The notes beneath the pieces were generated by a model. It saw only the letters and a list, made by a program, of their open reading frames with translations. It made no database searches and was not told the origin of the DNA. From positions 1-64,000 of the IMG/VR virus record IMGVR_UViG_3300032116_000116: a DNA stretch of 64,000 nucleotides; one strand, 5' to 3'. The position numbers were made by a program, and so were the translations under genes. The stretch comes from an uncultured virus (IMG/VR IMGVR_UViG_3300032116_000116). Taxonomy: Duplodnaviria; Heunggongvirae; Uroviricota; Caudoviricetes. Below, one piece after another: positions 23,865 through 44,015 of this stretch; positions within the stretch are counted from its first letter, which is position 1; each line of letters opens with the position of its first letter.

Positions 23865-24914
23865 TTATATGTAATTATTTTCTCTCAACATAAAATGACC
23901 TAATTCAAATGTTAAAATAGATTTAATATTTTTTTCTTCCCAGTATGGTATTCTTATTAATTGTATGTTGTTATCTTTACAATAATTTGTTTTAATTAAG
24001 TCTCTTTCTTGTAATGACTTAAATCCTTCTTCTCCACCAAAATACTCAATAGGTTCAAAATGTTGGATACCGTCATATTCTATACACACCTCAGTACCAT
24101 CATTTTTTATTACATGAGCATCAAATTTTAGTTTATCACAATATCTTTTACCACCATAACCAAAGCAACCATCGAAAGATTTTTGTTTATTTACTTTATA
24201 ACCTAATTCGTTTAATACACTTATCACCTGAGATTCGCCCTTACTTTCTTTTTTACCACATATAGGGCAACCTGTTTTTCCTTTTTTTAGGTTATGTATG
24301 TTTATACCTTCTTGAGCAAAAACAAAAGGTGTTGTGTGTTTTGTACATATAACATCTTTAACAAATAAAGTTTTATTTTTTAAACCATCCGTCTTATAAA
24401 AAAAATTTTCAGGTTTAAATGATAATCCTCTCTCCGCGGGAAAAGAATTAATCCAATCTCTCACATTTATTTTTACTGCAGATATAATTCTATCTTTACC
24501 ACATTTTCTACAACCGTTCCCCCTTATTTTTAAATCTTTTACATTGATGTTATTTGATATACCATGTTCCTCACCATTTTCATCTGTTTTATGACATTTT
24601 ATACCATCAATAAATCTTCTACCGTTTATTAATCTATATTTTACATTGGAAAAATCTAATTCAGGAAATTGTTTAATTAATTCTTGGGTTACCACATCGT
24701 CATCTTTTTTTTTAGGGGAGATTCTTAACAAATATTTCGTAATATCACCCCATGTATTTGAATCGTAGTTTCTATAAATGTATGTTTTTATGCCTGAATA
24801 TTTAGGATCTTTTCTAAAATCATCCATAGACGAAAATTTAGAAACGTAATCTTTAACATCACTTAAAGTCCATATTTTTTTTTCAATTTCATATAATATT
24901 TCTAATAATTTCAT
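23865..24914 (-). CDS. Zinc-ribbon plus Vsr/DUF559-like PD-(D/E)xK endonuclease (homing-endonuclease-like)
   Basis: GCRKC, GCPIC, SKGE, LKFD, IEYDGIQH, RDxxK, LIRIPYW. Confidence 0.8.
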   Translation of the reverse strand: MKLLEILYEIEKKIWTLSDVKDYVSKFSSMDDFRKDPKYSGIKTYIYRNYDSNTWGDITKYLLRISPKKKDDDVVTQELIKQFPELDFSNVKYRLINGRRFIDGIKCHKTDENGEEHGISNNINVKDLKIRGNGCRKCGKDRIISAVKINVRDWINSFPAERGLSFKPENFFYKTDGLKNKTLFVKDVICTKHTTPFVFAQEGINIHNLKKGKTGCPICGKKESKGESQVISVLNELGYKVNKQKSFDGCFGYGGKRYCDKLKFDAHVIKNDGTEVCIEYDGIQHFEPIEYFGGEEGFKSLQERDLIKTNYCKDNNIQLIRIPYWEEKNIKSILTFELGHFMLRENNYI

Positions 24915-24965
24915 ATTATCATAAATATTCTGAAAAATTTCCAGAAATTTTTTTTTTCAGTTTTA
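24910..24965. repeat. ~55-bp direct repeat, copy 1 (late motif plus start codon block)
   Basis: ttcatattatcataaatattctgaaaaatttccagaaatttttttt(t)tcagtttta, also at 26401-26455. Confidence 0.9.
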
Positions 24966-26405
24966 TCGATTAAAGTCCAATTTTAGGATTTTTAAGAATT
25001 GATCAAGTTTATCATTAATGTTTTTTGTACCTATTTTTTCTAATTTTTGGTTTAAGTTATTTATTTTGGTATAGAGTGTTGGATTTGATAATCTTGCAAG
25101 ACCTGATTTAAATTCTATAGAAGAGGTTATTTGACTTGGATTATGTTTATAGTTATTTATTTCTTTTTCATAATTTTTTATAATAATACTAACCACTGAG
25201 TTATTGTTTCTTTTTATAAAGTCTTTGATATTTTTAATGATTTCATTATTTTCTATTGGTTTTGTTACTATACCATATATAACATCCATTTTAGATAATT
25301 CTGTTTCCATTAATTTTTGTATGTTATCATACATTGGGTCAATGATATCTTTAGGTAATTTTTTAAACACATTTATTCCGAATGTACTGATTAAGATTGA
25401 AGTTAAAAAATCGGGGTCATATACCGATAAGAATTTTTTTAATACATCGTATCTTTTATTTATTACTGATCCCCTTATTATGAATTTAACTTCATCTAAA
25501 TTATTTGAATTTGTCTTTATTAATTCTATTATTTCATCAGATGGTTTATTGAATATATTTTTATCTGATCTAATATTTTCTTTATTTGTTATTTTACTAT
25601 ATTCTATCATCCATTCTCTAATAAAGTTTTTAAAGTCATTATTAAATTCACCATAAAAATGATAAGCATTTCCAAATTCACAAACACTTGATTCTAAAAA
25701 TCTACTTATTGGGTCTTTTATGTTCCAGTCTCCCCTTTTTATAAGATAAAAGACTAATAGTCCATTTTGGACAGTATTAATTATTACTCGACCAGAACCT
25801 TCACCGACATCACCAAATCCGGCTGATGGTATTCCCGTTTGTAATATATTGGTATATTGTGTTAAGTTTTCACAAGATGTTATTTTCGGTTTTGATGACA
25901 TTTCGGCAATATCATGTGAGTGTCTTGAAATTACAACATATAATTTATCCTCACCTTTATATTCTTTAGTTAGTGCACCTAAAAAATCAGTATAATTTTT
26001 TAAAAGTGTATTGTCATTATCATTTAATACTTTGGTTATTTTTATTTCTTGTCCGTTTCTTTTATTTTTTGCGGTATTTTTATTAAAATCAACAATTGAG
26101 TAACCTAATTCTTCTAAACTTGATGATATTTGATTTTTTAATTTATCATCTAATTTAATGTCTATTTTTAATTTTGGTGTATGTTTGGTTGGTGTAATTT
26201 GTTCACCAGTTTGTAGATCATAGTATAAACGATAGACATTTTTACCAAATATTTCTGTTAATTTTTCTTCATAATCTGATTTTAATTGTTTTGATCTAAT
26301 TTGTTTAGATAGGTTAAGTGAAATATATTCATTAATTAAATTAAAATTAGATAACGTATTTTTAATAATATTTTTAAGTTGCGATTCTTTAATTAAAATT
26401 TTCAT
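24963..26405 (-). CDS. Hypothetical protein with MKILIKESQ leader
   Basis: 480-aa ORF. Confidence 0.75.
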   Translation of the reverse strand: MKILIKESQLKNIIKNTLSNFNLINEYISLNLSKQIRSKQLKSDYEEKLTEIFGKNVYRLYYDLQTGEQITPTKHTPKLKIDIKLDDKLKNQISSSLEELGYSIVDFNKNTAKNKRNGQEIKITKVLNDNDNTLLKNYTDFLGALTKEYKGEDKLYVVISRHSHDIAEMSSKPKITSCENLTQYTNILQTGIPSAGFGDVGEGSGRVIINTVQNGLLVFYLIKRGDWNIKDPISRFLESSVCEFGNAYHFYGEFNNDFKNFIREWMIEYSKITNKENIRSDKNIFNKPSDEIIELIKTNSNNLDEVKFIIRGSVINKRYDVLKKFLSVYDPDFLTSILISTFGINVFKKLPKDIIDPMYDNIQKLMETELSKMDVIYGIVTKPIENNEIIKNIKDFIKRNNNSVVSIIIKNYEKEINNYKHNPSQITSSIEFKSGLARLSNPTLYTKINNLNQKLEKIGTKNINDKLDQFLKILKLDFNR

Positions 26406-26510: not shown

Positions 26511-26665
26511 TCCCCCCTTTCTAACCCCCCCTAAAAACCCCTATTTAAGGGGGGATACGGGAGGGGGGTGGTATAGGGGGGAGGGGTATGTAGGGAGATA
26601 GGGGGGTCGCCAGAGAAATTTTGAATCGGGACGGGGGTGGTCGGTCTGTATCTTGGATAGGGGGT
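26511..26665. other. C-tract/G-tract block with hairpin and G-quadruplex potential; candidate genome terminus, packaging or origin site
   Basis: Three C-runs then ten G-runs of 3-6 nt, at the late/early boundary. Confidence 0.55.
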
Positions 26666-26667
26666 AT

Positions 26668-26696
26668 AAAAAAAAGGTATCGTTTCCGATACCTTT
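26668..26696 (-). terminator. Intrinsic terminator of the gene at 26725
   Basis: AAAGGTATCG-TTTC-CGATACCTTT with a T-tract on the minus strand. Confidence 0.75.
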
Positions 26697-26724
26697 GTGA
26701 ACTCATTAGAGTCAATTTAAGACC

Positions 26725-27246
26725 TTATCTTTCTACAATGTAGTGAACACCACCCAAAGTAATTTCCTCAATAGAACTCAACTTAAATGATTGTACCAAC
26801 ACTCTCCTTTCTTGTGGTTGTCTTGAACTCTCACTCACTTTAACAAGGTAACTTTCAAACAATGTCTTTTCAACTTCGTTACCCTCAAAAATGTAACTTA
26901 CATTCGGTTTGATTTCGTCAAATCTTTCAACTTGTAAGTAGTGGGAATTGTGTTTCTCATTGAACAAAACACACTTTGAAATATGAACACCCACCTTATT
27001 TTCCTCACTCACAAAATTACCCTCTCCACCCTCTTTTTTATCATTGGTATTCACTCTCGTTTCGTACTCATTTCCAATAAGGTAGTTACATTTGTTCACT
27101 TTGAACACCTTATCATAATAAGGGTTATTTGTTTTGTTCATACGAACTTTTGTTTTGGAAACGATATTAACAAAGGTTGATTTATCAACATTCATTAAGA
27201 TTTCCAATAATTCAGTTTGTCCGATTGTTTTTGTTTCTTTGTTCAT
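26725..27246 (-). CDS. Early hypothetical protein; paralog of 33259-33786
   Basis: Shared IVSKTKVRMNK..NPY.DKV.K and SESSRQPQE; own TTTGG-N-TATATTTG promoter; no Ala. Confidence 0.8.
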   Translation of the reverse strand: MNKETKTIGQTELLEILMNVDKSTFVNIVSKTKVRMNKTNNPYYDKVFKVNKCNYLIGNEYETRVNTNDKKEGGEGNFVSEENKVGVHISKCVLFNEKHNSHYLQVERFDEIKPNVSYIFEGNEVEKTLFESYLVKVSESSRQPQERRVLVQSFKLSSIEEITLGGVHYIVER

Positions 27247-27685
27247 AGTTTTAATTTTTAATTGTTTCACAAATATACACCCTCAAAATGTATATTTCCA
27301 AATTTTTTTTTCCCTTTAACAAAACTTTAACATTTCGGGGGTGAAGGTTCGGGGTGACTTTTTTCGTGGCGAGAACCTACAAAGATACAAAATTATTTGT
27401 TAATAAAAAGTTAAAGTTTTCGTTAACAAAATTTTAAGAAAAAAAATTTGGAGGTGAACCCGTGAAGGTTTGGATTTTCTGTGGCGTGTAGGAAAAAAAC
27501 CACAAAGGTACGAAATTATTTGTTAATAAAAAGTTAAAGTTATTATGAGCCAGAGAAAAAGTTTTCCGGGTGATCCGGGGTTTACCCGTAAAATTCTTTA
27601 ACATAACATTAACATTCGGGTTGATTGTTTTGGGGTGTATAAGGTGTATATTTGTATATCGTTCACAAGTTAAAACTCTACTACT

Positions 27686-28060
27686 ATGTTAAAAAGAACT
27701 CTCACACTCGGACTTCATCATTGGACTGACAATGACTTAATCCTGAACTTTTATGTTACCAAATTCGGTACTCGGTACATTCATTTGAAAACCGAAGAAG
27801 AACTCTCCAAATTCATCGGTACAACTCCTTGTTCGTTTACCAAACAACAGATGAACTTCCGTTACCTTATGGGGTGTAAATCAAATGTCCTGACTGACTA
27901 CTCCAAACTTCAAAAGTTGGTGTTTGAAATGTTTGATGAAATCTCCTTCTACGAATTTCATCAAATCGTGAAAAAGATAGTTGGACAAGATGAATACGAA
28001 AGAAATAAATTCTTTGTGGAAAATGGATATAACCCTGAACGAATGATAATGATAAGTTAA
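27686..28060 (+). CDS. Early hypothetical protein
   Basis: Own promoter and terminator; no Ala. Confidence 0.75.
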   Translation: MLKRTLTLGLHHWTDNDLILNFYVTKFGTRYIHLKTEEELSKFIGTTPCSFTKQQMNFRYLMGCKSNVLTDYSKLQKLVFEMFDEISFYEFHQIVKKIVGQDEYERNKFFVENGYNPERMIMIS

Positions 28061-28080
28061 TCGGGTTGGAAACTGAAACG

Positions 28081-28110
28081 AAACCTCAACAGAAATGTTG
28101 GGGTTTTTTA
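28081..28110 (+). terminator. Intrinsic terminator; same sequence near 31558
   Basis: AAACCTCAACA-GAAA-TGTTGGGGTTT then T-tract. Confidence 0.8.
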
Positions 28111-28113
28111 TTT

Positions 28114-28312
28114 CCCACAGAACTCCGTGTTCACCAGATTCGCTGGTGGTAAATTTCTTTGGCTTGTAGAACCAGTTAGAAGATGTGGTTGGGGACACCG
28201 CATGCGAAAATATTTCTGTGGCGGTTGTCTTACATAATAGGGGTATTACAGGAGGTTACACGCCAAGGAAATTCCATAATCCCGGATCACCTGTCGTGTC
28301 ATCGTATTACAC
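28114..28312. repeat. Inverted-box element (compound copy)
   Basis: AGAACTCCGTGTTCACCAGATTCGCTGGT head; TTTCTTTGGC and TTTCTGTGGC...GCCAAGGAAA. Confidence 0.85.
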
Positions 28313-28391
28313 ATTCACAAAACTTTAACAAAATAAATTTGGATATAAGGGTATAAATTGGTTAACTTTGACGAAACAAACTTTCAAAGTT

Positions 28392-28673
28392 ATGTCTTAC
28401 ACAAAAGAAGAAATCAAAATGAACTTGTCAAGAAACCCTAAATGGATAGAAAGAGCGTTGGTTGTCTTACATAACCTCCAAACTACCGAAGAACAAATCA
28501 CAAACGAAACAATCAAAGAGAATGGGGTTGGTTTTAATTCATCGGATAGTCGGTATCTCTCCTATTGTGCGAAATGGATAAAGGGTGGTAATCACTTAAA
28601 CGAGAAACACCTCACTAAATGTGGTCAGAAACTCCCAAAGTATTGGAAACAAATACACTCAATGATTAAGTAA
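28392..28673 (+). CDS. Early hypothetical protein
   Basis: Start taken at MSYTKEEIK; QT.EEQ...NGVGF pattern. Confidence 0.75.
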   Translation: MSYTKEEIKMNLSRNPKWIERALVVLHNLQTTEEQITNETIKENGVGFNSSDSRYLSYCAKWIKGGNHLNEKHLTKCGQKLPKYWKQIHSMIK

Positions 28674-28727
28674 CTTCACACTCCACTCAAAACATTAAAC
28701 CTCCGATAGTATCGGGGGTTTTTTGTT

Positions 28728-28840
28728 AGAACTCCGTGTTCACCAGATTCGCTGGTAGATATTTTTTGTGGCGGATAGGTACAGATTAACCTACTCGCCA
28801 TGGAAAATTATCCTGATCGCAACAGCGGTTCACGGGGAAA
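28728..28840. repeat. Inverted-box element
   Basis: Same head as 28114; TTTTGTGGCG...CGCCATGGAAAA. Confidence 0.85.
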
Positions 28841-28925
28841 ATTCGTTAACAACATTTTAACAATAAAAATTTGGAAATATAAGGTATAATGTCGTATATT
28901 TGATAAACAATTAAAAACTACTACA

Positions 28926-29105
28926 ATGGACAAAATCACTCTCACACTCCTTCTCCTTACACTCGGACTAATGGGGTTAACAATGTTATTCTCTCACTAT
29001 ATGAGGAATGACAAAATCTCAAACATTTTTCTTCGTGTTTTATTCGGTTTGACAATGATGACATTCACTCTCTTTATGATGGACATTTTTCTCTCAAACA
29101 TTTAA
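28926..29105 (+). CDS. Small membrane protein (59 aa)
   Basis: Own translation MDKITLTLLLLTLGLMGL...; directly after a promoter. Confidence 0.6.
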   Translation: MDKITLTLLLLTLGLMGLTMLFSHYMRNDKISNIFLRVLFGLTMMTFTLFMMDIFLSNI

Positions 29106-29117
29106 TAACTACCAACT

Positions 29118-29456
29118 ATGACACACGAACAACTACACAACTTCGTATCGGAAAAAGGTGAAAGGGAATTTAACCCACAAGAAACCTTACAAGTATTAAC
29201 CCACAACAGAACAACATATTGGTCTTGGGGTGTATCTAAACTCCTTAATATGTTTAATAAGGGGTTATGTTTGAAAGTATCAGGACATCACCACAAAGGT
29301 TGGGTAATCATCACACTCGGTTTTACAGACACTTACTCGGTGTTTTATGTATCAAACAATGGTAAAGTCAAAGATGAACAACACTTGGTCTATTTTGACG
29401 AACTCACCGAAAGGATAGATGATAAAATCGAACGAATACCGATTTACAAACACTAA
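29118..29456 (+). CDS. Early hypothetical protein
   Basis: 112 aa; WSWG...V.G.HH.G.V...DTY...VYFDEL...ID..IE. Confidence 0.75.
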   Translation: MTHEQLHNFVSEKGEREFNPQETLQVLTHNRTTYWSWGVSKLLNMFNKGLCLKVSGHHHKGWVIITLGFTDTYSVFYVSNNGKVKDEQHLVYFDELTERIDDKIERIPIYKH

Positions 29457-29510
29457 TCACGAAATCGTAATACAGAAACCCTCGACAAAAGTCGGGGGTT
29501 TTTTGTTTTT

Positions 29511-29635
29511 CCACAGAACTCCGTGTTCACCAGATTCGCTGGTGGTGAATTTATGTGGCGGATCGTATTACAGATAAAGGTGGTATTACACGCCACATAA
29601 ATTTTTTGGTTCAGATCCAGGTTTCCACCAGTGAA
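29511..29635. repeat. Inverted-box element
   Basis: Perfect 13-bp inverted repeat AATTTATGTGGCG/CGCCACATAAATT, plus outer CTGGTGG/CCACCAG. Confidence 0.9.
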
Positions 29636-29719
29636 ACTCTTTAACAATAGATTAACAAAATAAATTTGGAATATAAGGTTTAATGATGTATATTTGTTAA
29701 ACAATTAAAACATACTACA

Positions 29720-29974
29720 ATGGACAAAAACAAACTAATTAACAGAATTGAAAACATTGGTTTTCTTCTCGGTTGTTTTATCGGTTTATTAACACTTATG
29801 ATGTTGGGGGCGGAACCTACTACTTGGGATGAGGATGGGTTGTACGATTATGAACACCTTTGGGATAAAGGAAATTCGGGTTGGTATGTTATGTGGACTT
29901 GGGTTTGGTCAGTTGTTACTTTGATTGGGTTGATAGTGGTTAGGTCATTCATTAAGAAAAGTTTAACAAAATAA
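29720..29974 (+). CDS. Small two-TM membrane protein
   Basis: Hydrophobic segments; promoter upstream. Confidence 0.7.
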   Translation: MDKNKLINRIENIGFLLGCFIGLLTLMMLGAEPTTWDEDGLYDYEHLWDKGNSGWYVMWTWVWSVVTLIGLIVVRSFIKKSLTK

Positions 29975-30031
29975 ATTTGGTTTTACTCGGTATAAGTTGT
30001 ATATTTGTATAAACAATTAAAAACAAAAATT

Positions 30032-30226
30032 ATGAAAAAGTTTTTCAGTTCTATTCTCGGTTTTCACTTGACAATTATGGTTGGGTTGGTTGTTATGTTT
30101 TACTTCAACAACTTGGAAGATAACTACCTAACAATCATTAACAACATTTTCTTGGTTATGATGTCTTTATCCGTTGTGTTATCGGTGGTCTTATGTTACT
30201 TTGACAAACGAATTTCTAAAAGATAG
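30032..30226 (+). CDS. Small two-TM membrane protein
   Basis: Start taken at MKKFF after a promoter. Confidence 0.65.
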   Translation: MKKFFSSILGFHLTIMVGLVVMFYFNNLEDNYLTIINNIFLVMMSLSVVLSVVLCYFDKRISKR

Positions 30227-30480
30227 TTGTAGTTTTAATTGTGAACGAAACCACTCCGAAAGGGGTGGTTTTTTTATTTGTGGTATTACACAAAACTTGA
30301 ATCGCGGTTCGAGCTGGGATTACACCTTTTTCTGTGGCGATCCGTATTACAGAAACCCACTCGCCATAAAAAAAGTTTACCAGGACGACAGGTATGAATA
30401 TGGTTTTGAAAAATAAATTTGGAATCAAAAAATATAAGTTGTATATTTGTGTATTATCTAACAAATTAAATTTATATCAA

Positions 30481-30822
30481 ATGAAAGAACAAAATGAATG
30501 TAATGGAAAAATGTTTCCGAAAGGTTTTTGGTCAAAGAATGGTAAGCCCACACAAAACGCCTTAATGATGTATTTTGTGTATTTGACACATTTACCTGAA
30601 AGTTGGAAAAAGAAAGTAGTACACAAACCCTCACTCGAAAAAACACGACAATACTTTGATGTTGATTATGGTATTGAATGTATGTTAACTTGGGGGATAC
30701 AATTTGGTTGTAAAAATTCTAAAACGTCAGATGAAAGACACCACGCAATGTCTTTGGCTTATCACGACGCTTTGGGTATGATTGGTCAAGGTTACCGATA
30801 CACCGAATTGAAAATTAAGTAG
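30481..30822 (+). CDS. Early hypothetical protein
   Basis: Start taken at MKEQ after a promoter. Confidence 0.7.
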   Translation: MKEQNECNGKMFPKGFWSKNGKPTQNALMMYFVYLTHLPESWKKKVVHKPSLEKTRQYFDVDYGIECMLTWGIQFGCKNSKTSDERHHAMSLAYHDALGMIGQGYRYTELKIK

Positions 30823-31075
30823 TGTTTGGTTTTAATTGTGAACGAAAAGTCCTCAACGAAAGTTGGGGATTTTTTTTGTCAAGTCACAGACCTCCGTGTT
30901 CACCAGATTCGCTGGTGGACATTTTTTGTGGCTGATCCTATTAGAGAAACCGACAAGCCATAGAAATTTCAGGATGGAAGGTGATCCGAATTCACCTTCA
31001 CAAAATTTTAACAAAAAAAATTTGGAATAAGTATGTATATGTTGTATATTTGTATAAATAATTAAAAAAAACATT

Positions 31076-31213
31076 ATGAAAAAGATTTATTCAGTTATCG
31101 TAGTTATCGTTCTTGTATCATTAACAATGTCCTCTTGTAAAACAAGTGGGTATGGTTGTAAGGGGAAAGAAAGTTGGGGTGGATTGATGAAAAGAATTAA
31201 CAAACCTTATTAG
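31076..31213 (+). CDS. Mini-lipoprotein (45 aa)
   Basis: Own translation MKKIYSVIVVIVLVSLTMSSC-KTSGYGC...; lipobox; promoter and terminator. Confidence 0.65.
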   Translation: MKKIYSVIVVIVLVSLTMSSCKTSGYGCKGKESWGGLMKRINKPY

Positions 31214-31329
31214 TAGTATGGTTGGTTTTAACCCGATGTTTTTACATCGGGTTTTTTATTTTTTTTAACATTTTAGATTTGAAATATAATATTTATTGTT
31301 GTATATTTGTTTAACTAAACCCACTCACT

Positions 31330-31533
31330 ATGAATTTACAATTAAGAACTGAACTAATCGGAAAAAGAATTATGATGATTTTTATGGATGACCCTCAACC
31401 TATTGAACCAAACACAATGGGTACAATTATCGGAGTTGATGGGTTAAATCAATATCAAGTCAAATGGGATAACGGAAGAAGTTTATCGGTTATACCCGAA
31501 GAAGACCAATTCGTCATTATTGACACAGAGTAG
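31330..31533 (+). CDS. DUF4314-like small protein
   Basis: MDDPQP....GT..GVD...Q..V.WDNG.SL..IP..D.F. Confidence 0.75.
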   Translation: MNLQLRTELIGKRIMMIFMDDPQPIEPNTMGTIIGVDGLNQYQVKWDNGRSLSVIPEEDQFVIIDTE

Positions 31534-31793
31534 TCCGTTCGTTCCCTCATAAAGACAAACCTCAACAGAAATGTTGGGGTTTTTTGTTTCTCCACAGAAC
31601 TCCGTGTTCACCATGCTCCCGGTATGTCATTTTCTGTGGCTGATCGTATTACAGGAAGTTAGACGCCAAAGAAATTTCCAACGACCCGGATCAGGAAATC
31701 GCCTGTCGGTTATCTTCACAAAGTTTTAACAAAATAAATTTGGAATATAAAGTATAATGATGTATATTTGTTAAACAATTAAAAACTACTACA

Positions 31794-31904
31794 ATGAAAC
31801 AAGACAATTCTGACCAATGGATTCAAGGATTAACATTAATAATCTGTTTTATTACACTTGTTATTGTAATCTCCTTAAAGTATTATCTAACGGGTGAAAT
31901 CTAA
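31794..31904 (+). CDS. 36-aa single-TM peptide
   Basis: Own translation; directly after a promoter. Confidence 0.5.
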   Translation: MKQDNSDQWIQGLTLIICFITLVIVISLKYYLTGEI

Positions 31905-31946
31905 AATAAATTTGGAATATAATAAATAATACCTTATATTTGTGTT

Positions 31947-32057
31947 ATGAAACAGAAATACGAAAATAGATTTTACAAAATTTTACTTTTATTTTGGATG
32001 ATGGTATTCACCTTTGTTTACTTTCAAATAAAATATCAATTAGTTTTCCATTTCTAA
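31947..32057 (+). CDS. 36-aa single-TM peptide
   Basis: Own translation; ATG a few nt after the -7 box. Confidence 0.45.
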   Translation: MKQKYENRFYKILLLFWMMVFTFVYFQIKYQLVFHF

Positions 32058-32067
32058 AAAACGAAAT

Positions 32068-32220
32068 ATGAAAAATAATTATTTAAGTACAATTAAAAGA
32101 AAGGAACAAGTACAACAAGGAATGTACGATGGTCGTTTCCGTAGTCGTGTGGTGGTAGATAAGAAGAAGAAAGAAAGTAAAAACAAATGTCGTGTTAAAC
32201 TTAAAATCAATTATGTATGA
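32068..32220 (+). CDS. Small basic protein with ArfA-like motif
   Basis: Own translation includes GMYDGRFRSRVVVDKKKKES; ATGA overlap with the next gene. Confidence 0.55.
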   Translation: MKNNYLSTIKRKEQVQQGMYDGRFRSRVVVDKKKKESKNKCRVKLKINYV

Positions 32221-32426
32221 TACTTGAATTACATTCAGTCGGAAGTGTTATTGACACAGAAACACTATTCACATATCCAATGTTACTAAATGGTGGATAT
32301 GATAAAAATCAAAATGTCCATATTGACGATGTTGATATAGAGTGGTTTCATAGTTTGTCTGATGAAGATTTTGGAACAATAAATGAGTTAATCAATCAAA
32401 GAAACATTAAATCGGAAATAGTATGA
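32217..32426 (+). CDS. Early hypothetical protein
   Basis: 69 aa, translationally coupled. Confidence 0.65.
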   Translation: MILELHSVGSVIDTETLFTYPMLLNGGYDKNQNVHIDDVDIEWFHSLSDEDFGTINELINQRNIKSEIV

Positions 32427-32551
32427 ACAGAGATAGACTAAATAAAATTGAAGAAATTGGTTTTCGTATTACAATGATATTGGTGTTTAGTGTTTTCACT
32501 ATTTGGTTGATTGGAACGATTGTCAAGTTAATAATGATATTGTCGTCATAG
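32423..32551 (+). CDS. 42-aa membrane peptide
   Basis: Own translation MNRDRLNKIEEIGF...; N-terminus resembles 29720. Confidence 0.5.
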   Translation: MNRDRLNKIEEIGFRITMILVFSVFTIWLIGTIVKLIMILSS

Positions 32552-32820
32552 TTTAGGTTTGGTTTTAATTGTGAAGAAATCCCTCAACGAAAGTTGGGGG
32601 ATTTTCTTTTGGAGGAACTTGAGTCGTGGTTCACCGTGTCTTCAGGGATTTTTTGTGGCTGATCGTATTCAGGTCAACCTCACAAGCCACGGAAATTTGG
32701 TAATCCGAATCACCTGTTTTCCTTCAGGAAATCCTTTCACAAATTTTTAACAAATTATTTTTGGAATAAAAATTTATATGGTGTATATTTGTTATATCAT
32801 TAACAATTAAAACAAACATT

Positions 32821-32988
32821 ATGAAAAAGTTACTTGGTCTTATCGTTATCGTGGTTTTATTTTCTTCTTGTAGTCATTATGTAAACGGAGGTGGTGGAGG
32901 TTGTGGGGTATGGTATCCTCGTAAATTTGAAAAAACAAAGGTGTTCCCTACTCGAAATCATCCAATGTATCGACACTTCGGAGGATAG
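32821..32988 (+). CDS. Mini-lipoprotein (55 aa); paralog of 34348-34542
   Basis: Own translation MKKLLGLIVIVVLFSSC...GCGVWYPRKFE. Confidence 0.75.
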   Translation: MKKLLGLIVIVVLFSSCSHYVNGGGGGCGVWYPRKFEKTKVFPTRNHPMYRHFGG

Positions 32989-33258
32989 TGTTCTAAATAA
33001 ACCTATCAATAAAAATCCCTGACAATAGTCGGGGATTTTTTTTTCAAACACAAGAAGATGTGATCCGGATCAGCTCGACCGTGGATTTTCTCTGGCTCAG
33101 GTCAACCTACAAGCCAAAGAAAATTAATAATCCAGATCCCGTCCCTGAAATTTTAACAAAACTTTAACACAAAATCCTTTAACAACATTTTAACAATAAA
33201 AATTTGGAAATAGGTAGTAATAAGTTGTATATTTGTATAAACAATTAAAACAAATTTT

Positions 33259-33786
33259 ATGAAACAGAAACAAAGAGTATTTGTAACAGAAAGAGAGTTG
33301 TTAATTATCTTAATGAGTATTGACAAACCTACATTCACTCACATTGTATCTAAAACCAAAGTGAGAATGAATAAAGGTGGTAATCCGTATTTTGATAAAG
33401 TTACCAAACACTCAAAAGGTAACTACTTCATCGGTGGTAGTTATGAGGATATGGTAAACACTCGTTGTGTGAAAGAGGGTATTGAACCTAATTTTGAAAG
33501 TCAAGAATGTTCAGTCGGAGAACATATTACCAAGTGTGTTCAGTATAATGAGAACTTACAGAGGTACTATCTTCAATACTTCATCTTCCCTACAAGTAAC
33601 ATCAAGAGTGAATTTACCTATGAGGGAGATAGTATTGAGAGAGAGTTGTTCCGTAGTTATGAGGTAAAGAGGTCGGAGAGTTCAAGACAACCACAAGAGA
33701 ACAAACACAAACCACAATCGTTTATGGTATCTTCCATTGAGGAAATGACACTAAACGGAACGGAATATGTGGTGGTAGGTAGATAA
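33259..33786 (+). CDS. Early hypothetical protein; paralog of 26725-27246
   Basis: Extensive shared motifs; no Ala in 175 aa. Confidence 0.8.
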   Translation: MKQKQRVFVTERELLIILMSIDKPTFTHIVSKTKVRMNKGGNPYFDKVTKHSKGNYFIGGSYEDMVNTRCVKEGIEPNFESQECSVGEHITKCVQYNENLQRYYLQYFIFPTSNIKSEFTYEGDSIERELFRSYEVKRSESSRQPQENKHKPQSFMVSSIEEMTLNGTEYVVVGR

Positions 33787-34047
33787 GGTATTACACAACC
33801 GAAATATAAGGTAGTCATTTGACTACCTTTTTTTATGTCCATACCTATCCACGAGTCGTAGACAGAAGACGCGTCCGAAAATTTCTCTGGCGGATCGGTA
33901 TTCGTATTACAGGAGCCACGGAAATTTCAACATCTCAGTAGACATCTCCTCGTCATCGTTAAATTCATTATGAAAACATTAACAGAGATTTTTTGGAGAT
34001 ATAAGGTATTACATAGTATATTTGATAAACAATTAAAAACATATACT

Positions 34048-34269
34048 ATGAACAAAGAAACAATCAAAGTGGTGGTGTGTTATTGTAACTCACTTCCCAA
34101 AGGTTTTATGACACTTCGGAATTTCTTAAACTTTACAAATCGTTCGTGGTGGGATAGTACCAAAACTATTGAGATACCAAAAGAGTATTGGGAGAATGTC
34201 CACATTGGGAACATAGATAGGTATGTTGAAATGTATGAGAATAACCCTAAGTGGTGGAATGTTGTATAA
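34048..34269 (+). CDS. Early hypothetical protein
   Basis: Start taken at MNKETIK after a promoter. Confidence 0.65.
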   Translation: MNKETIKVVVCYCNSLPKGFMTLRNFLNFTNRSWWDSTKTIEIPKEYWENVHIGNIDRYVEMYENNPKWWNVV

Positions 34270-34347
34270 ATTTTAACAAATTAAATTTGGAATATAAATT
34301 TATTTGTTGTATATTTGTTCTATCATTAACAATTAAAACAATACATT

Positions 34348-34542
34348 ATGAAAAAGTTACTCGGTCTTATCGTTGTGGTTATCATCTTTTCAAGTTGTGG
34401 AACAACTTATTACGGAACAAGTGGTGGGAATGGTTGTGGTGTGTGGTTTCCCAAAAAATTTGAAAGGGATAGAAGTCATCAAAGAAGAATGAATTGGATA
34501 AACAATCCAAATTCGGGTAGGTATCGTAGTGGTGTTCATTAA
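34348..34542 (+). CDS. Mini-lipoprotein
   Basis: MKKLLGLIVVVIIFSSC lipobox; GCGVWFPKKFE. Confidence 0.75.
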   Translation: MKKLLGLIVVVIIFSSCGTTYYGTSGGNGCGVWFPKKFERDRSHQRRMNWINNPNSGRYRSGVH

Positions 34543-34582
34543 AAAAAAATTCTTATCTTCGTTAAACCTTAAATCAATTTTT

Positions 34583-34765
34583 ATGAAACAATTACTTTTT
34601 ATCTTGTTCGGTATTAAACCTCAACAAAAATTCAGAGAGTTGAAATTTGAAAAGAAACAATATCCTTTAAGGGAGTTCAATCAAACTGACTTTGAAAAGT
34701 GGTGTAACGAATTTAGAGTTGGTTGTATGGATGGAAAAAGGATAGTTCATTTTGAAATTGGGTAA
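34583..34765 (+). CDS. Early hypothetical protein
   Basis: Start taken at MKQLL; terminator follows. Confidence 0.6.
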   Translation: MKQLLFILFGIKPQQKFRELKFEKKQYPLREFNQTDFEKWCNEFRVGCMDGKRIVHFEIG

Positions 34766-35028
34766 TCACTTACCTTTGATAACAAAGTCCTCAACGAAAG
34801 TTGGGGATTTTTTTTGTCCAAAACCCAAGAAGATGTGATCCGGATCAGCTCCATCCGGGATTTTACGTGGCAGATCGGTATTCGTATTACAGAAGCCACA
34901 AAAATTCCACTTCAGGACGACAGGTATGATTCTGATTTTTATTTTAACACTTTTTAACAAAAATAAATTTGGAGTGGAATTGTATATGTTGTATATTCGT
35001 GTATTGTTAAACAATTAAAACTAAACGT

Positions 35029-35253
35029 ATGACAAACTTACAAAGAATTGGTAATTGGTATTCAGTTACAATTAATGATACTAACTACAATGTCCTTATT
35101 CAAAAAGATGATAATAAGGTTACTTGTGAACCTTCCTCAATTATTGTATTTGACGAAGATTTCAAAGAGGTTGACAAACCAAGTGTGTATGATGATATGA
35201 TAAGTATATTTGAAAAAGTTGACTTCAAATACGATATGATTGATGATGATTAA
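35029..35253 (+). CDS. Acidic early hypothetical protein
   Basis: Promoter upstream. Confidence 0.65.
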   Translation: MTNLQRIGNWYSVTINDTNYNVLIQKDDNKVTCEPSSIIVFDEDFKEVDKPSVYDDMISIFEKVDFKYDMIDDD

Positions 35254-35336
35254 CTAATCTTTAACAAAATAAATTTGGAATGAAAGTTTATATCGTGTAT
35301 ATTTGTGTATTGTTAAACAATTAAAATTAAAAACAA

Positions 35337-35678
35337 ATGAACTTTGTAATCACACACTACGGAAAAAATGTTGATGAACTCAACGAAAAAGAAAAAGCAT
35401 TATTAATGGTTGATACCCTTATGACTACTCTTTTTATGAAAAAGAAAGAAGATGGTCTTGAACCGATTGAGGATATTATGTGTAACTCTTTGAGTAACAA
35501 AAGAAACGGAATTGTCCTTGACATTATGGGTTGGGAACAAGGGGAAACTCGTGAGGAAAAATTGGAACTCCTTGAAAGAATGGAACAGACAAAGTATAGT
35601 TATACTAAATTCTTAAAGGATATGAGAATTAATGTTAAGAAACACGATGAAATGGAAAGAGTATCATCATTGAATTAA
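35337..35678 (+). CDS. Early hypothetical protein
   Basis: Promoter and terminator. Confidence 0.7.
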   Translation: MNFVITHYGKNVDELNEKEKALLMVDTLMTTLFMKKKEDGLEPIEDIMCNSLSNKRNGIVLDIMGWEQGETREEKLELLERMEQTKYSYTKFLKDMRINVKKHDEMERVSSLN

Positions 35679-35987
35679 TTTTGGATTATCGTTTCATATT
35701 TACCCCCGATGTTTTTACATTGGGGGTTTTTGTTTCCCCGAACTCACCTTCACAGACAGCTCCATCGGGGAATTTATCTGGCGGATCGGTTTATGGACGC
35801 CACGGAAATTTCTGGATGGAAGGATGCTCCTTCAGAAAATAAAATTTGTTAATAGTTTTTAACAAAATAAATTTGGAATAGGGGTGTATAAGTTGTATAT
35901 TTGTGTTATGAAGAAACTAAAACCTTACATATTTCCGATTATATTGGTTATGTATGTTTTAATTAAAACATTCTTCAAACATTAATT

Positions 35988-36533
35988 ATGAAAACTTTAA
36001 TTATTCACCCGAAAGACAGAACGACTGATTTTTTAAGTGTATTTTACCAAAACATACCCGATAAGGTTGTTATTAGTGGTGGGTACTCAAAAGATGAAGT
36101 TAGGGAAATGATAAAGGACTTTGATAGGGTTATTATGTGTGGACACGGAACTCCCAATGGGTTGATGTCCGTAGGTCAATTCAAAAGTAGTTGGGGGTTT
36201 ATCATTGACGAAACCTTTGTTGATGTGTTGAGTGAGAAAACTGAAAATATCTTTATATGGTGTAACGCGGACAAGTTTGTTCGTAAACATAACCTCAAAG
36301 GGTTTTTCAGTGGTATGTTTATTTCCGAAGTCGGAGAAAGTGAGTATTGTGGTGTACCCTCTCCACAAGATATTGTAACGGAAAGTAATGATACATTCTC
36401 AAACATTCTCTCAAAGTATATCAATGACAATGTTTCGGTAATTCACAAAAAAGTTACAAAGGAATATGGTAAATTTTCCGAAACTAACCCGATAGGGTAT
36501 TACAATAATAATAGGTTGTACCTTACACAATAG
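35988..36533 (+). CDS. Hypothetical protein, possible caspase/gingipain-like His-Cys fold
   Basis: VIMCGHG ... IFIWCNA spacing. Confidence 0.55.
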   Translation: MKTLIIHPKDRTTDFLSVFYQNIPDKVVISGGYSKDEVREMIKDFDRVIMCGHGTPNGLMSVGQFKSSWGFIIDETFVDVLSEKTENIFIWCNADKFVRKHNLKGFFSGMFISEVGESEYCGVPSPQDIVTESNDTFSNILSKYINDNVSVIHKKVTKEYGKFSETNPIGYYNNNRLYLTQ

Positions 36534-36893
36534 TTTTTTGTCATAAATAAAATAACCCCCGATGTTTCTACATTGGGGGTTTTTGTTTTTGGGGTATTAC
36601 AACAAGATGTGTTGGGACGGTGAGCAGATCAGGGAATTTCTGTGGCTGATCGTATTACACTCGCCATAAAAAAAGTGGAAGACCAGAGCACCAGTCTTCA
36701 GGAAAAACTTGACTAATTAAAAAAAATGTATTACCTTTGTTTTGGTTTTTCACAGGATATTGGATTAATAACCCCCTTATGTTTCTACATTGAGGGGTTT
36801 TTTGTTTTAACAAAGGTTTAACAATAAATATTTGGAAATATAAGATTTTATTTCGTATATTTGTTCTATCAATAACAATTAAAAATTATTTTT

Positions 36894-37112
36894 ATGAAAA
36901 CAAAAATTAAGAACATTGTACTCGCAGTAGTTACTTACTTTATTGGTTTATTCATTGTATCGGTGTTTTTAAGTACATTTCAAACTCCCGATAATCTTAA
37001 CCTACCGACTTTTGGTTATGTGTTATTTTACCTTTATTTCTTCGGGGGAATGTATTTGGTGTATCGTATTTTCTTAAAGAAAAAGAAAGAAATTAAACCC
37101 GAAACATTTTAA
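36894..37112 (+). CDS. Small two-TM membrane protein
   Basis: Hydrophobic; promoter and terminator. Confidence 0.7.
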   Translation: MKTKIKNIVLAVVTYFIGLFIVSVFLSTFQTPDNLNLPTFGYVLFYLYFFGGMYLVYRIFLKKKKEIKPETF

Positions 37113-37238
37113 TCAAAAAGTAACTTAACCCCCGATATTTCGGGGGTTTTTGTTTTAACAAAATTTTAAGAAAATAAATTTGGATTGTGTTTGTATAATT
37201 TGTATATTTGATTATCATTAACAATTAAATTTACAATT

Positions 37239-37526
37239 ATGAAAAAGTTATTTGTAATATCATTTGTTGTTTTTCTTTTCAGTTGTTCAGTTCAAAAAGA
37301 GTGTAATGTGAAATTTAACCTTTCAAATTTAGATATTGACTTAAAAGATAGTGTTAATATAAAAGTAGAAAGAATTGTTTATACATATCTCGGAAATTTT
37401 GTTAGGGGTACTAATAATGTTTGGTATCGTCATCGTGGAATAGTTGATTTTAAGGTTGGTGATAGTGTTGTAGTTTTTAATGAGTTCAAAACTTTACCTC
37501 CTTGTCCTCGTGAGTGGGGGTTTTAA
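37239..37526 (+). CDS. Small lipoprotein
   Basis: MKKLFVISFVVFLFSC lipobox. Confidence 0.7.
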   Translation: MKKLFVISFVVFLFSCSVQKECNVKFNLSNLDIDLKDSVNIKVERIVYTYLGNFVRGTNNVWYRHRGIVDFKVGDSVVVFNEFKTLPPCPREWGF

Positions 37527-37607
37527 GAAAACATTAACAAAATAAATTTGGAATATAAAATTTATTGTTGTATATTTGTGTAACATTAACAATTAAAACA
37601 AAACACA

Positions 37608-38210
37608 ATGGAAGCGATTAACACAATTACCAAAGGAAACTACAAATTAGAAATTTTTCAAGAGGATAGTCCCGAAAGTCCAAGAAGTTGGGATAATTTG
37701 GGAACAATGATTTGTTTTCACGGAAGATACAATTTAGGGGATAAACACGACTATAATCATAGAGATTATTCGGGTTGGGAAGAACAGAAAAAAGAAATTT
37801 CTAAACAAGAGAATGTGTGTGTTATCTTACCCTTGTATCTTTACGACCATAGTGGGATAACAATGAACACAACAGGTTTCAGTTGTGGTTGGGATAGTGG
37901 TCAGGTTGGTTGGATAGTAGTATCAAAGGAAAAAGTGAAAAGTGAATACGGAGTAAAAAGAATTACCAAAGATATTATTGAGAAAGTTACCAATGTGTTG
38001 AAAGGTGAAGTGGAAACATACGACCAATATCTTACGGGTGATGTTTACGGGTATAGAGTATCAAAGATTGAAGTGTGTGATAAGGGTTGTGAACACGATG
38101 AAGAAGTAGATAGTTGTTGGGGTTATTATGGAGAGGAAAGTGTGGAGGCGGAAGGTAAAAGGATATTGGAGTATTACATTAAGGAAGAAGAAAAGAGTGT
38201 TTGTTCATAG
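37608..38210 (+). CDS. Conserved phage/plasmid hypothetical protein
   Basis: SPRSWDNLGT...LPLYLYDHSG...WDSGQVG...SCWGYYG. Confidence 0.75.
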   Translation: MEAINTITKGNYKLEIFQEDSPESPRSWDNLGTMICFHGRYNLGDKHDYNHRDYSGWEEQKKEISKQENVCVILPLYLYDHSGITMNTTGFSCGWDSGQVGWIVVSKEKVKSEYGVKRITKDIIEKVTNVLKGEVETYDQYLTGDVYGYRVSKIEVCDKGCEHDEEVDSCWGYYGEESVEAEGKRILEYYIKEEEKSVCS

Positions 38211-38456
38211 TTTAGTTTTAGTTGTTAAAGGGAAAAGGGTATCAGAAATGATACCTTTTTTTATTGCCCGAATTTGCGCTTAAGCTCGAACCAGTGCGCA
38301 ACAGCTCGTGATTTTCCGTGGCAGATCCGTATTACATGCCACAAAAAAATTACCATCCTGAGTCAGCATTTTCCTTCAGAAAAACATTAACAAATTTTAA
38401 CAAATTAAATTTGGAATAAAACTATATTAGTTGTATATTTGTATAAATTAAATTGT

Positions 38457-38615
38457 ATGGAACAAACAATTAAAAAAGAAAAGAAAAAAAGTGAACCGAA
38501 GTATTTTACGGATGAAGATGCGAAAAATGTATTTGTTTTTCAAGAACCATATAAAACAAGTGTAAAAGGTAAACCTATTCAAAAATCAATATCATTAAAA
38601 TTTCGTAAACGATGA
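38457..38615 (+). CDS. Small basic protein (52 aa)
   Basis: Own translation; ATGA overlap with the next gene. Confidence 0.55.
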   Translation: MEQTIKKEKKKSEPKYFTDEDAKNVFVFQEPYKTSVKGKPIQKSISLKFRKR

Positions 38616-38848
38616 AAAAAAATCTTACTTATTTGTTATTTAGTTTTGTTATCTTTACTACTATCGGTTGTTCAGTTAGTAGGTGTGGATATAAGAATAA
38701 GGTATCAAAAAGACAATTAAAAGAAAGTATGAAGTATTCCGATTGGAGATATTATTATCCAACTAAATCAATTACTCAAACATATCAAAATAATCATTAC
38801 AATGTATATGATTACAATACTCAAAGAAAAACTGAAAAAGACAATTAA
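38612..38848 (+). CDS. Small lipoprotein
   Basis: MKKNLTYLLFSFVIFTTIGC lipobox. Confidence 0.65.
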   Translation: MKKNLTYLLFSFVIFTTIGCSVSRCGYKNKVSKRQLKESMKYSDWRYYYPTKSITQTYQNNHYNVYDYNTQRKTEKDN

Positions 38849-39041
38849 TAATTGTTTTGTTAATGATACTGGATTGGTTGCGAAAGGTATTATCTATCAG
38901 TACGAGGGTAAACCTTTCGCGGGTTATGTCATTTATCAAACATACAAATTCTTTTGGATTACTCAATATAAGACCATTGACCACATTGATAGTTTGGAAA
39001 CATTAAAAGAAGAATATCCAAACATTAAAGTAATATATTAA
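38802..39041 (+). CDS. Hypothetical protein
   Basis: 79 aa; start uncertain. Confidence 0.55.
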   Translation: MYMITILKEKLKKTINNCFVNDTGLVAKGIIYQYEGKPFAGYVIYQTYKFFWITQYKTIDHIDSLETLKEEYPNIKVIY

Positions 39042-39317
39042 AGATTAAGACAAGCAATCAAGTGAAAATTCCCTGATGTTTCTACATCGGGGTTTTTTGT
39101 TTTATGACTGTAAATAGATTACAGTCTGGTCCAGTGCGATCAGGTTGATTTTCTGTGGCAAATCCGTACTATTGTTGCCACAAAATATTTTCCTGATCCG
39201 GATCACCTCCTCCTTCAGTAAATTCATTAAGAAAACTTTAACATAAATTATTTGGAAATATAAACAAAATAGATTTATATTTGTGTACTATCTCACTAAC
39301 TATTAAACTCAAAAAAA

Positions 39318-40010
39318 ATGAAAACAAAAACAATTAAAATCCAGACAAAAAGTAAAAGAAAATCAACTTATTCAAACCACGATGGAATGTATAAGAATAG
39401 GGCTAGAATGAAGATAGTTAATACAATTAAGGAGAGTAACTTAAAAAATAGAAGAATACTATCTTTACCGGCTGATAATTGTATTATTGAAAAACAACTT
39501 TTTACGAATGTATCTAAACTGATTAAATTTGTTTTATGTGAAAACAATGAACAAGTGTATAAAAAATTGTTAATGAATATCGTTACTAGTAAAACTAGAA
39601 TCCCACATTCAATCCTTTCTGGTTCAATCGGTGATGAAATTTACAGAAGTCGGGAGAATGATTATACTGATTTAATACTTGACTATTGTGGTCAAATCGG
39701 AACATACCATAAAGAAATTGAACACGCAATTAAAAATAATATTGTGTGTGTCGGTGGAACAATATCTATGACATTCAATAAAAGAATTTCGGGAGATACT
39801 AATATGAAATTCATTGAAGAAATGGAACGACTTAACCCGAATTTTGATAAGAAAGAGGGTGAGAACAGAACAGAACCAGCCGTTATGACTTTTCTCAATC
39901 GTGTGTGTGGTATGAATTATCAAATTGTTGAAAGGTATTCGTATAGGGATGATGGGGATGATAAAAAAAGATCACCAATGATGTTGGTTATAGTTCGTAG
40001 AGTATCTTAA
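39318..40010 (+). CDS. Hypothetical protein, possibly degenerate Rossmann methyltransferase-like fold
   Basis: ILSLPA...FVLCE...DLILDYCG...GGTISMTF strand pattern. Confidence 0.55.
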   Translation: MKTKTIKIQTKSKRKSTYSNHDGMYKNRARMKIVNTIKESNLKNRRILSLPADNCIIEKQLFTNVSKLIKFVLCENNEQVYKKLLMNIVTSKTRIPHSILSGSIGDEIYRSRENDYTDLILDYCGQIGTYHKEIEHAIKNNIVCVGGTISMTFNKRISGDTNMKFIEEMERLNPNFDKKEGENRTEPAVMTFLNRVCGMNYQIVERYSYRDDGDDKKRSPMMLVIVRRVS

Positions 40011-40265
40011 CATTATCGTATTACATTTAAGGGGTATCAGAAATGATACCCTTTTTTGTTGCTGTCATCATAGCTCGATCGCAGCGCGCAACAGCTCGTG
40101 ATTTTCTGTGGCAAAATCGTATGACACAAAGTGACTTGCCACATAATATTTTACAGTATTTGGGCTGGGGTCGTGATCCGATCCTTTAACAAAAGATTAA
40201 CGTAAATTATTTGGAAATAAAACTATAATAGTTGTATATTTGTGAAACAATTAAAAACAAATATT

Positions 40266-41910: not shown

Positions 41911-41911
41911 T

Positions 41912-44013: not shown

Positions 44014-44015
44014 CA

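Follow-up and report, generated by a model that had tools for sequence, protein, structure and literature searches.

In an uncultured freshwater T4-like jumbo phage, a genome- and clade-wide GpC purge culminates in a desert over the predicted early genes

The desert and its genes

The DNA analysed here is a window of 64,000 nucleotides (positions 1 to 64,000 of the uncultured virus record IMGVR_UViG_3300032116_000116). At positions 26611-38250 it carries a GpC desert, an array of small genes and repeated intergenic cassettes in which the dinucleotide GpC is scarce and the encoded proteins contain almost no alanine (Ala). The desert is the deepest GpC minimum of a 287 kb genome, with an odds ratio per kb of 0.05-0.42, and marks the extreme of a GpC purge that extends through the genome and the clade of this uncultured freshwater T4-like jumbo phage. 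The window comes from within a source genome of about 290-330 kb. The 77,752-bp record to which it belongs corresponds, with one base differing, to G002:114204-191955, G002 being a viral contig of 286,785 bp, and the window itself to G002:114204-178203, in the middle of that contig. Seen against a relative (G005), the two ends of G002 fall about 6 kb from each other, so that the G002 record is nearly whole. Genes were called throughout by our own longest-open-reading-frame heuristic, with no gene finder. For the desert, open reading frames (ORFs) overlapping the intergenic cassettes were removed, as were all minus-strand ORFs except 26725-27270, leaving 23 genes with 2,227 codons.

Two stretches of the desert are empty of GpC: 26611-27368 (758 bp), which has 16 CG, and 27551-28141 (591 bp), which has 19. 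Base composition predicts 21.2 and 19.4 GpC, respectively, and the whole-genome odds ratio (0.56) predicts 12.0 and 10.9 (Poisson P 6e-6 and 2e-5); in 5,000 shuffles of each stretch, the minimum was 10 and 8. For the entire region 26611-38250, composition predicts 311 GpC and the whole-genome odds ratio predicts 175 (P 6e-24), whereas 60 are present. Most of these (47 of the 60) lie outside the 23 genes, generally in the gaps from a terminator to the next promoter or in hairpin stems. When G002 is divided into 3-kb bins, the odds ratio is 0.15-0.25 at 141-150 kb; the lowest bin outside the desert and its flanks has 0.28.

The 23 genes encode 12 alanines (0.54%). They contain no NGC codon, against 187 NGT codons, and a single G|C codon boundary, against 126 G|T boundaries. 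The synonymous NGC fraction is thus 0/187, compared with 4% elsewhere in G002 (p 5e-4). In bins, alanine makes up 0.7-1.0% of residues in the desert region and 2-6% in the rest of G002. The original prediction for this DNA had described two stretches empty of GpC in spite of their CG, about 12 alanines in the ORFs of the zone, four alanine-free proteins of 173, 124, 112 and 175 amino acids (aa), and GpC located mostly between genes; the recount agrees on each point, the first protein being 181 aa long from a GTG and 173 aa from the ATG of its homologues. It had also held that the depletion fades with distance. Alanine does climb from about 0.5% to 3-5% across 38-42 kb, but the gradient is not one-sided: the minus-strand genes of the left flank at 23865-26405, one HNH endonuclease-like (349 aa) and the other of 480 aa, both carry 1.1-1.2% alanine, and depletion follows the density of the cassettes and not the distance from one point.

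The first leftward gene (26725-27270, minus strand) has no alanine and no GpC. It belongs to a family of which 120 members were listed among 285 matched; at about 53-100% identity, these 120 homologues contain 9 alanines in 20,808 residues, in line with the earlier view that the pressure overrides protein composition. A 175-aa paralogue at 33259-33786 (plus strand; 52% identity to 26725-27270) is also free of alanine, as are its homologues in two other relatives, G010 and G011. The predicted model of the 26725-27270 protein has a pLDDT of 86. A Foldseek search with it gave no match at E <= 0.001, and VIA-align gave a best Z of 5.8, to small beta-barrels of the Sm/WYL type, a likeness too weak for the function of the protein to be named. 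A nuclease motif D-E-x-K suspected by eye was supported by no tool and was dropped.

The remaining early genes are on the plus strand. Two of them, 27686-28060 (124 aa) and 29118-29456 (112 aa), have neither alanine nor GpC, and the G010 homologue of the second (59% identity) has 2 alanines. The gene at 30394-30822 (142 aa) holds the most GpC of all desert genes (5 GpC, 4 alanines). The protein of 35988-36533 (181 aa) has 1 alanine, compared with 6 in its G011 homologue and 5 in that of G010 (55-59% identity). The last desert gene, 37608-38210 (200 aa, phrog_6186), encodes 2 alanines; its homologue in G005 (47% identity) has 6. Among the early proteins, the sole Pfam match is DUF4314, in gene 31330-31533, and PADLOC matched 0 of 24 window proteins. 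Recoding of a stop codon to alanine was considered and discarded: reading TAG as alanine merely lengthens six plus-strand and two minus-strand ORFs by 6-68 codons into terminators, and no suppressor tRNA was found.

About 15 PeSL-like intergenic cassettes lie at 27361-38420 (plus strand). Each is composed of an intrinsic terminator, a conserved spacer, a hairpin with a 10-bp stem (arms TTTCTGTGGC ... GCCACAGAAA, the loop usually with GATC) and a predicted early, sigma-70-like promoter of the recurring form TTGGAA-17-TATATT. Promoter cores are found at 27445, 28868, 29663, 30416, 31019, 31737, 31909, 33201, 34284, 34966, 35272, 35870, 37545 and 38408. There are 29 terminator-like sites, compared with 8.8 in shuffles, and their stems are rich in G+C, yet without GpC. 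The left arm of the hairpin occurs at 16 places within 27361-38313 and more thinly out to 57958; the density is about one cassette per 0.75 kb at 27.4-38.4 kb and one per 2-3 kb out to 58 kb. The GpC desert overlaps the densest part of this array.

The hairpins between terminator and promoter (27361-38347) keep GpC in both arms, as GTGGC and GCCAC, and form the main GpC reservoir of the region. A hairpin of the cassette family at 28213-28271 (plus strand) has conserved GpC in both arms, and another copy is located at 34862-34904 (plus strand).

Contigs from DNA runs of lake metagenomes link different cassettes within 28113-40563, skipping 0.2-10 kb at a depth like that of the main path; examples run from 28113 to 38395 and from 31751 to 39176. 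These joins suggest population variants with shuffled early-gene modules, or branching of the assembly graph at repeats. The region lies between conserved core blocks and varies from relative to relative: the part of G002 at 114-152 kb has only three reciprocal best hits in G005. In a single RNA run, 13 of 30 bins had coverage, too shallow for any ranking. Judged by the anatomy of its promoters and terminators, the region is probably a divergent immediate-early hyperplastic array, in which each cassette would drive one or two small genes.

Directly downstream of the desert, at 40632-45411 (plus strand), lie DUF932, SprT-like and ParB-like genes. The DUF932 and ParB-like genes are common to G010 and G011 and not found in G005. 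The set is similar to anti-restriction genes found in the leading regions of plasmids.

GpC avoidance across the genome and the clade

G002 encodes a T4-type portal, terminase, prohead protease, sheath, baseplate protein and family-B polymerase, together with PhoH, Hsp20, ClpB/ClpP, an RNA ligase and many sugar enzymes. Metagenomes from lakes and other fresh waters, 17 studies in all, contain DNA of the window. Nucleotide searches of the phage collection gave no match; the closest cultured phages (portals 37-38% identical), whose hosts are Flavobacterium and Microcystis, show no GpC avoidance.

Over the 80,731 codons of G002, GpC is scarcest at codon positions 2-3 (odds ratio 0.23), followed by positions 3-1 (0.31) and positions 1-2 (0.61). 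Of 48 6-kb bins, all but the one with the tRNA cluster have an NGC/(NGC+NGT) of 0.008-0.094; NCC/(NCC+NCT) ranges over 0.16-0.49. When G005 is taken as the reference, all 10 NGCN context classes are reduced in G002, G010 and G011 (0.06-0.73). In G010 and G011 no class is lower than AGCT, which also ranks with the lowest in G002; the smallest reduction is that of GGCA/TGCC. Flanking preferences are roughly strand-symmetric (AGC 0.15 and GCT 0.23; GGC 0.57 and GCC 0.61). No paired GC-Nx-GC spacing was singled out, the codon period alone being visible. The avoided unit is therefore the dinucleotide in every flanking context, with no defined recognition site of 4-8 bp. AC and GT are mildly over-represented at free positions of G002 (1.08-1.30).

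The pressure acts on DNA words and not on alanine itself, since NGC codons and G|C boundaries are purged besides GCN codons. A pressure at the level of DNA had been proposed from the window, and the joint loss of these three classes bears it out. Alanine is halved proteome-wide in G002 relative to a close relative. The replacement of alanine that had been predicted for homologues is seen in alignments of G002 and G005 orthologues, with 935 differences from alanine in G005 to another residue in G002 and 449 in the other direction, the partners being mainly Ser, Thr, Val and Gly. The original prediction had reckoned that a uniformly low level of GpC would speak against a local effect; synonymous GpC is indeed low everywhere, and the desert is still deeper.

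The distribution of the trait was followed in 80 portal loci, with portals 73-100% identical to that of G002. By thresholds of our own, a boundary odds ratio of 0.5 or less defines an avoider, 0.8 or more a non-avoider, and values between these an intermediate. There are 55 avoiders, 15 non-avoiders and 10 intermediates, a bimodal distribution. On a portal tree built with a quick method the trait is clustered, and at least 4-5 switches are needed. G005 (234 kb, portal 85% identical) is a non-avoider, with an odds ratio of 0.92 and 3.1-7.4% alanine; G010 (311 kb) and G011 (288 kb) are avoiders, with odds ratios of 0.51 and 0.50. The alanine content of the early region is 0.8% in G010 and 1.5% in G011, compared with 3.6-5.3% in the matching part of G005. 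The desert is thus found again in G010, in weaker form in G011, and not in the non-avoider. Avoiders do not fall below non-avoiders in NCC fraction or G+C content.

Other words are also purged in this clade. GATC is absent from G010 (0 against 975 expected) and G011 (0 against 795) over the whole records (loci L157-L187). G005 (L114-L125) is purged of GATC (106 against 662 expected), GTAC (63 against 509) and CTAG (80 against 321), whereas G002 retains GATC (800 against 947 expected). Many portal loci have no GATC and some have no CTAG. These word counts indicate that the clade is under heavy selection of the restriction type.

To separate a filter on new GpC from a faster decay of existing GpC, close relatives were compared. 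The exchange test used 15 independent avoider pairs and 3 non-avoider pairs, chosen from 87 listed pairs (85-99.9% identity) with each locus used once. Synonymous T/C differences were grouped according to the base before them, and A/G differences according to the base after them. Per NGT site, avoider pairs have a T/C exchange of 0.038, compared with 0.18-0.33 in other contexts, and their A/G exchange before C is 0.035, compared with 0.17-0.23. The non-avoider pairs have no comparable deficit. In the eight closest avoider pairs (93-99% identity), the odds ratios of GpC gain are 0.28 (p 7e-11) and 0.46 (p 4e-4); in two non-avoider pairs they are 0.72 and 1.39. The odds ratio of GpC loss is 1.87 in avoiders and 2.07 in non-avoiders, a rise of about 2-fold in both. 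New GpC is thus removed by a factor of about 3-5, and existing GpC shows no unusual mutability, which fits selection, as the original prediction had supposed. Because gain is suppressed and loss is no higher than in non-avoiders, these results argue against decay driven by methylation or by a deaminase. Single-nucleotide differences within the lineage (0-1 mismatches in most identical-length comparisons) are too few for a spectrum.

Three enzymes of G002 deserve mention in this respect. The first is a C5-cytosine DNA methyltransferase of 305 aa (54907-55824, plus strand; PF00145, 1.3e-32) with a short target-recognition region; the best PDB matches of the enzyme are DNMT3 catalytic domains. 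Its gene is inserted between two genes that adjoin in G005. Of 29 syntenic loci, 26 (nearly all belonging to avoiders) lack it, as do five partial relatives. PF00145 is absent from the whole of G010 (93% complete) and G011 (92%), and distant homologues (35-38% identity) occur in contigs with a GpC odds ratio of 1.08-1.27. Because the avoiders G010 and G011 have none, the methylase was rejected as the cause; it is an acquisition of the G002 lineage. No gene beside it had a Pfam match to TET/JBP; PF12851 matched 0 of 4 records, its controls being likewise unmatched. Replacement of cytosine before replication was also rejected: the thymidylate synthase homologue is of the dUMP type, as its discriminating residue is Asn, and T4 itself is without a GpC deficit.

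The second is a 154-aa enzyme of the dCMP-deaminase family (L015:17935-18399 = G002:57935-58399, minus strand). Of 23 avoider loci, 19 carry its gene, compared with none of five non-avoider loci; the gene is absent from the whole of G005, and it is the only one of 33 neighbouring genes that follows the GpC trait. The best PDB match is the dCMP/dCTP deaminase of PBCV-1, and the protein looks like an ordinary dCMP/dCTP deaminase. The third is a D12-class adenine methylase (L024:10633-11475 = G002:230633-231475, minus strand), found in 35 of 36 avoider loci and in neither of two non-avoider loci. The syntenic site of G005 lacks it, and a more divergent copy occurs in three loci with high NGC fractions. 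G010 and G011 carry this methylase yet have no GATC, so its target is probably not protected GATC. These gene-trait comparisons ignore phylogeny, and the non-avoiders with data come from three clades.

Some features of the genome stand apart from the desert. The tRNA cluster of G002 (L017:1744-8990) has 23 tRNA genes for 19 amino acids, tRNA-Ala being the only one missing; tRNA-Ala(UGC) is present in G005 and G010, and G010 also has a gene for transfer-messenger RNA. G011 has a second, far longer desert at about 114-130 kb (L178-L179), where an ORF of 5,472 aa has 0.8% alanine and a GpC odds ratio of 0.11. In the window, a tail-fibre-like block on the minus strand (1986-7495; F5/8 type C domain, phrog tail protein) differs from the rest of the genome in composition, with a GpC odds ratio of about 1, 5-10% alanine and low CpG, and may be a recent import. 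A CCA-adding tRNA nucleotidyltransferase (12409-13587) and an adjoining HD-domain protein (11879-12400) are encoded on the minus strand, with NUDIX and pterin-4a-carbinolamine dehydratase genes close by.

Possible sources of the pressure

The reading that we prefer, and to which we give about an even chance, is that GpC is purged by selection against an enzyme that attacks DNA, most strictly in the immediate-early array. An enzyme met during infection, which cuts or damages DNA, would recognise GpC, or a site that includes it, above all when flanked by A/T (AGC/GCT). Immediate-early genes would have to be read from unprotected DNA, ahead of any counter-measure of the phage; a hit in them would be fatal, while damage elsewhere could perhaps be survived. 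The same logic is known from the first-expressed regions of T5 and T7-like phages. Relevant here is that selection is strongest in the early-gene array, at synonymous sites as well. We would accordingly tie the pattern to expression order and cassette density and not to a physical gradient of injection.

Several points weigh against this reading. We know of no bacterial enzyme with a GpC-only target, the selecting agent is a putative one, and the presumed timing of expression is taken from promoter-like sequence alone. About 3,700 GpC are left in G002, so that avoidance lowers the risk and cannot abolish it. One double-strand cut anywhere should kill a single genome, and the excess in early genes therefore needs an added assumption. 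The cassettes tolerate and conserve GpC between terminator and promoter, which suits an agent acting on RNA at least equally. The tRNA genes are no poorer in GpC in avoiders (0.59-0.65, compared with 0.68 in the non-avoider). The exchange test assumes stationarity and depends on our own ORF calls and on pairs that we picked ourselves, and its p-values ignore shared ancestry within pairs.

Selection might instead act on RNA, if an endoribonuclease, be it a phage enzyme or part of a host abortive-infection system, cuts single-stranded RNA at GpC; we regard this as rather unlikely. Immediate-early mRNAs, made before any inhibitor, would be purged most, and GpC that is untranscribed or base-paired would be tolerated. 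Such an enzyme would account naturally for the early messages being hit hardest. The intergenic position of most desert GpC, between terminator and promoter or in hairpin stems, is in its favour, as are the G+C-rich terminator stems without GpC and, less clearly, the equal level of GpC in the tRNA genes of avoiders and non-avoider. On the other side, the rough strand symmetry of the flanking preferences is that expected for a target in duplex DNA, and the clade has strong purges of words at the DNA level, such as the complete loss of GATC from about 300 kb. To our knowledge, no GpC-specific bacterial RNase has been described. As GpC is its own reverse complement, the sequence by itself cannot separate DNA from RNA.

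It is also conceivable, although unlikely in our view, that the agent is the phage's own. Avoiders would then carry an activity that wrecks the host genome and is aimed at GpC in exposed single strands; the agent could be the 154-aa deaminase-family enzyme, moonlighting on DNA, or a nuclease travelling with it. In this reading, self would be told from host by the absence of GpC and not by a chemical mark, and the purge would be most complete in the earliest and most heavily transcribed DNA. The deaminase gene could also mark phages that recycle host DNA, or a host range. Should the agent prove to be the phage's own, a dinucleotide purge would represent a new form of discrimination between self and host DNA by a virus, strong enough to delete one amino acid from a group of proteins.

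The original prediction favoured a gradient of injection, with DNA entering from a fixed end near 26.5 kb and GpC content reflecting the time of exposure to restriction before protection. T5 provides a precedent, and restriction sensitivity in Autographiviridae is decided only by motifs in the first-injected region, according to the accessible part of one study (PMC12455610). The minimum at the start of the rightward early arm and the rise of alanine over 38-42 kb agree with such a gradient. We nevertheless hold it to be quite improbable, and the proposed start of injection is not supported: the window is an internal fragment of a 287 kb record with synteny-joined ends, and the minimum is two-sided and lies on a divergent array of early promoters. 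The low-alanine zone runs leftward too, depletion follows cassette density, and synonymous GpC is near its floor throughout the genome. The terminase is of the T4 type, which in T4 gives permuted ends.

Even less probable is a uniform pressure combined with weak constraint, small fast-evolving or newborn early ORFs having drifted to a GpC-free neutral composition. It would agree with the absence of homologues in G005, G010 and G011 for 25 of 32 desert ORFs, and with a desert odds ratio at alanine positions (0.21) that is close to that at free positions. Orphan ORFs elsewhere in G002, however, keep 2.3-4.8% alanine, compared with 0.95% in the desert, and for ORFs with homologues the values are 1.9-3.7% elsewhere and 0.39% in the desert. 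The explanation fails because orphans elsewhere are richer in alanine and the conserved desert genes are the poorest of all. The persistence of one alanine-free family through its 120 listed members and the lower synonymous NGC of the desert are further points against it.

The least credible explanation is mutational decay, in which GpC cytosines, methylated by the phage C5-methylase or deaminated by the dCMP-deaminase-family enzyme, would decay to T like vertebrate CpG, fastest where transcription exposes single strands. T4, with its cytosine fully modified, shows no GpC deficit. The idea has some support in the C5-methylase encoded by G002, the excess of AC and GT, the deaminase gene that follows the trait and two preprints, the accessible parts of which describe TET-coupled phage C5-methylases mostly preferring GpC (bioRxiv 10.1101/2023.12.21.572611) and some phage dCMP-deaminase-family enzymes acting on single-stranded DNA (bioRxiv 10.1101/2024.12.05.627091). 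It is largely refuted by the exchange test, with loss per GpC site no higher in avoiders and gains down 3-5 fold, and by the distribution of the methylase, missing from two avoiders; there is, moreover, no general shift from C to T in NCC fractions or G+C content, and the thymidylate synthase is of the dUMP type.

Relation to known systems

The purge resembles the avoidance of restriction sites in that words are lost beyond what composition predicts, synonymous sites included, in a lineage-specific manner maintained by selection, and in a clade with GATC-free genomes. It differs in its unit, a dinucleotide in 10 contexts and not a site of 4-8 bp, in being partial (odds ratio 0.5-0.56), and in its effect on proteins, as alanine is lowered proteome-wide and removed from early proteins.

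The first-step-transfer DNA of T5 is a known case of the exclusion of sites from a first-entering region. As in the leading regions of T5 and Autographiviridae, the target would be most strictly missing from DNA that precedes anti-defence functions, and the region is hypervariable with many small genes. Here, in contrast, it lies in the middle of the genome at a divergent promoter array, stepwise entry or a fixed end being without evidence, and the remaining genome is purged too, synonymous GpC being low in 47 of 48 bins.

The cassettes are similar to PeSL modules, which combine a terminator and an early promoter in hyperplastic regions of T4-like phages, according to the accessible text of their description (PMC4122927). 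Here too, composite modules of this kind lie between small variable ORFs of a T4-like genome; the contigs that join different cassettes may reflect recombination at them or branching of the assembly graph. Ours have in addition a conserved hairpin with a 10-bp stem, in which both arms contain GpC and the loop usually contains GATC; a link to a dinucleotide purge is not found in the accessible part of the PeSL account (PMC4122927).

Likeness to vertebrate CpG depletion lies in a self-complementary dinucleotide that is several-fold reduced and held up only by coding need; the difference is that gain is suppressed here and loss is not raised. Hypermodification of GpC by phage C5-methyltransferases and TET (5mYOX) is reportedly also a subject of Burke et al. 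2021. These systems share with ours the aquatic phages, GpC as the unit and, in G002, a small C5-methylase; as far as the accessible part of the preprint goes (bioRxiv 10.1101/2023.12.21.572611), they mark GpC, whereas here it is removed, and the methylase is missing from other avoiders.

Selection on a two-letter DNA word has thus been strong enough to reshape protein chemistry, halving alanine in the whole proteome and nearly deleting it from early proteins. As the trait switches among phages with portals about 80% identical, the clade constitutes a natural experiment for finding the responsible enzyme, and the deaminase and the D12-class methylase are two candidate marker genes that co-vary with the trait. 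The findings suggest that sequence-based escape concentrates in the immediate-early hyperplastic regions of T4-like phages, which bears on the prediction of defence sensitivity from sequence.

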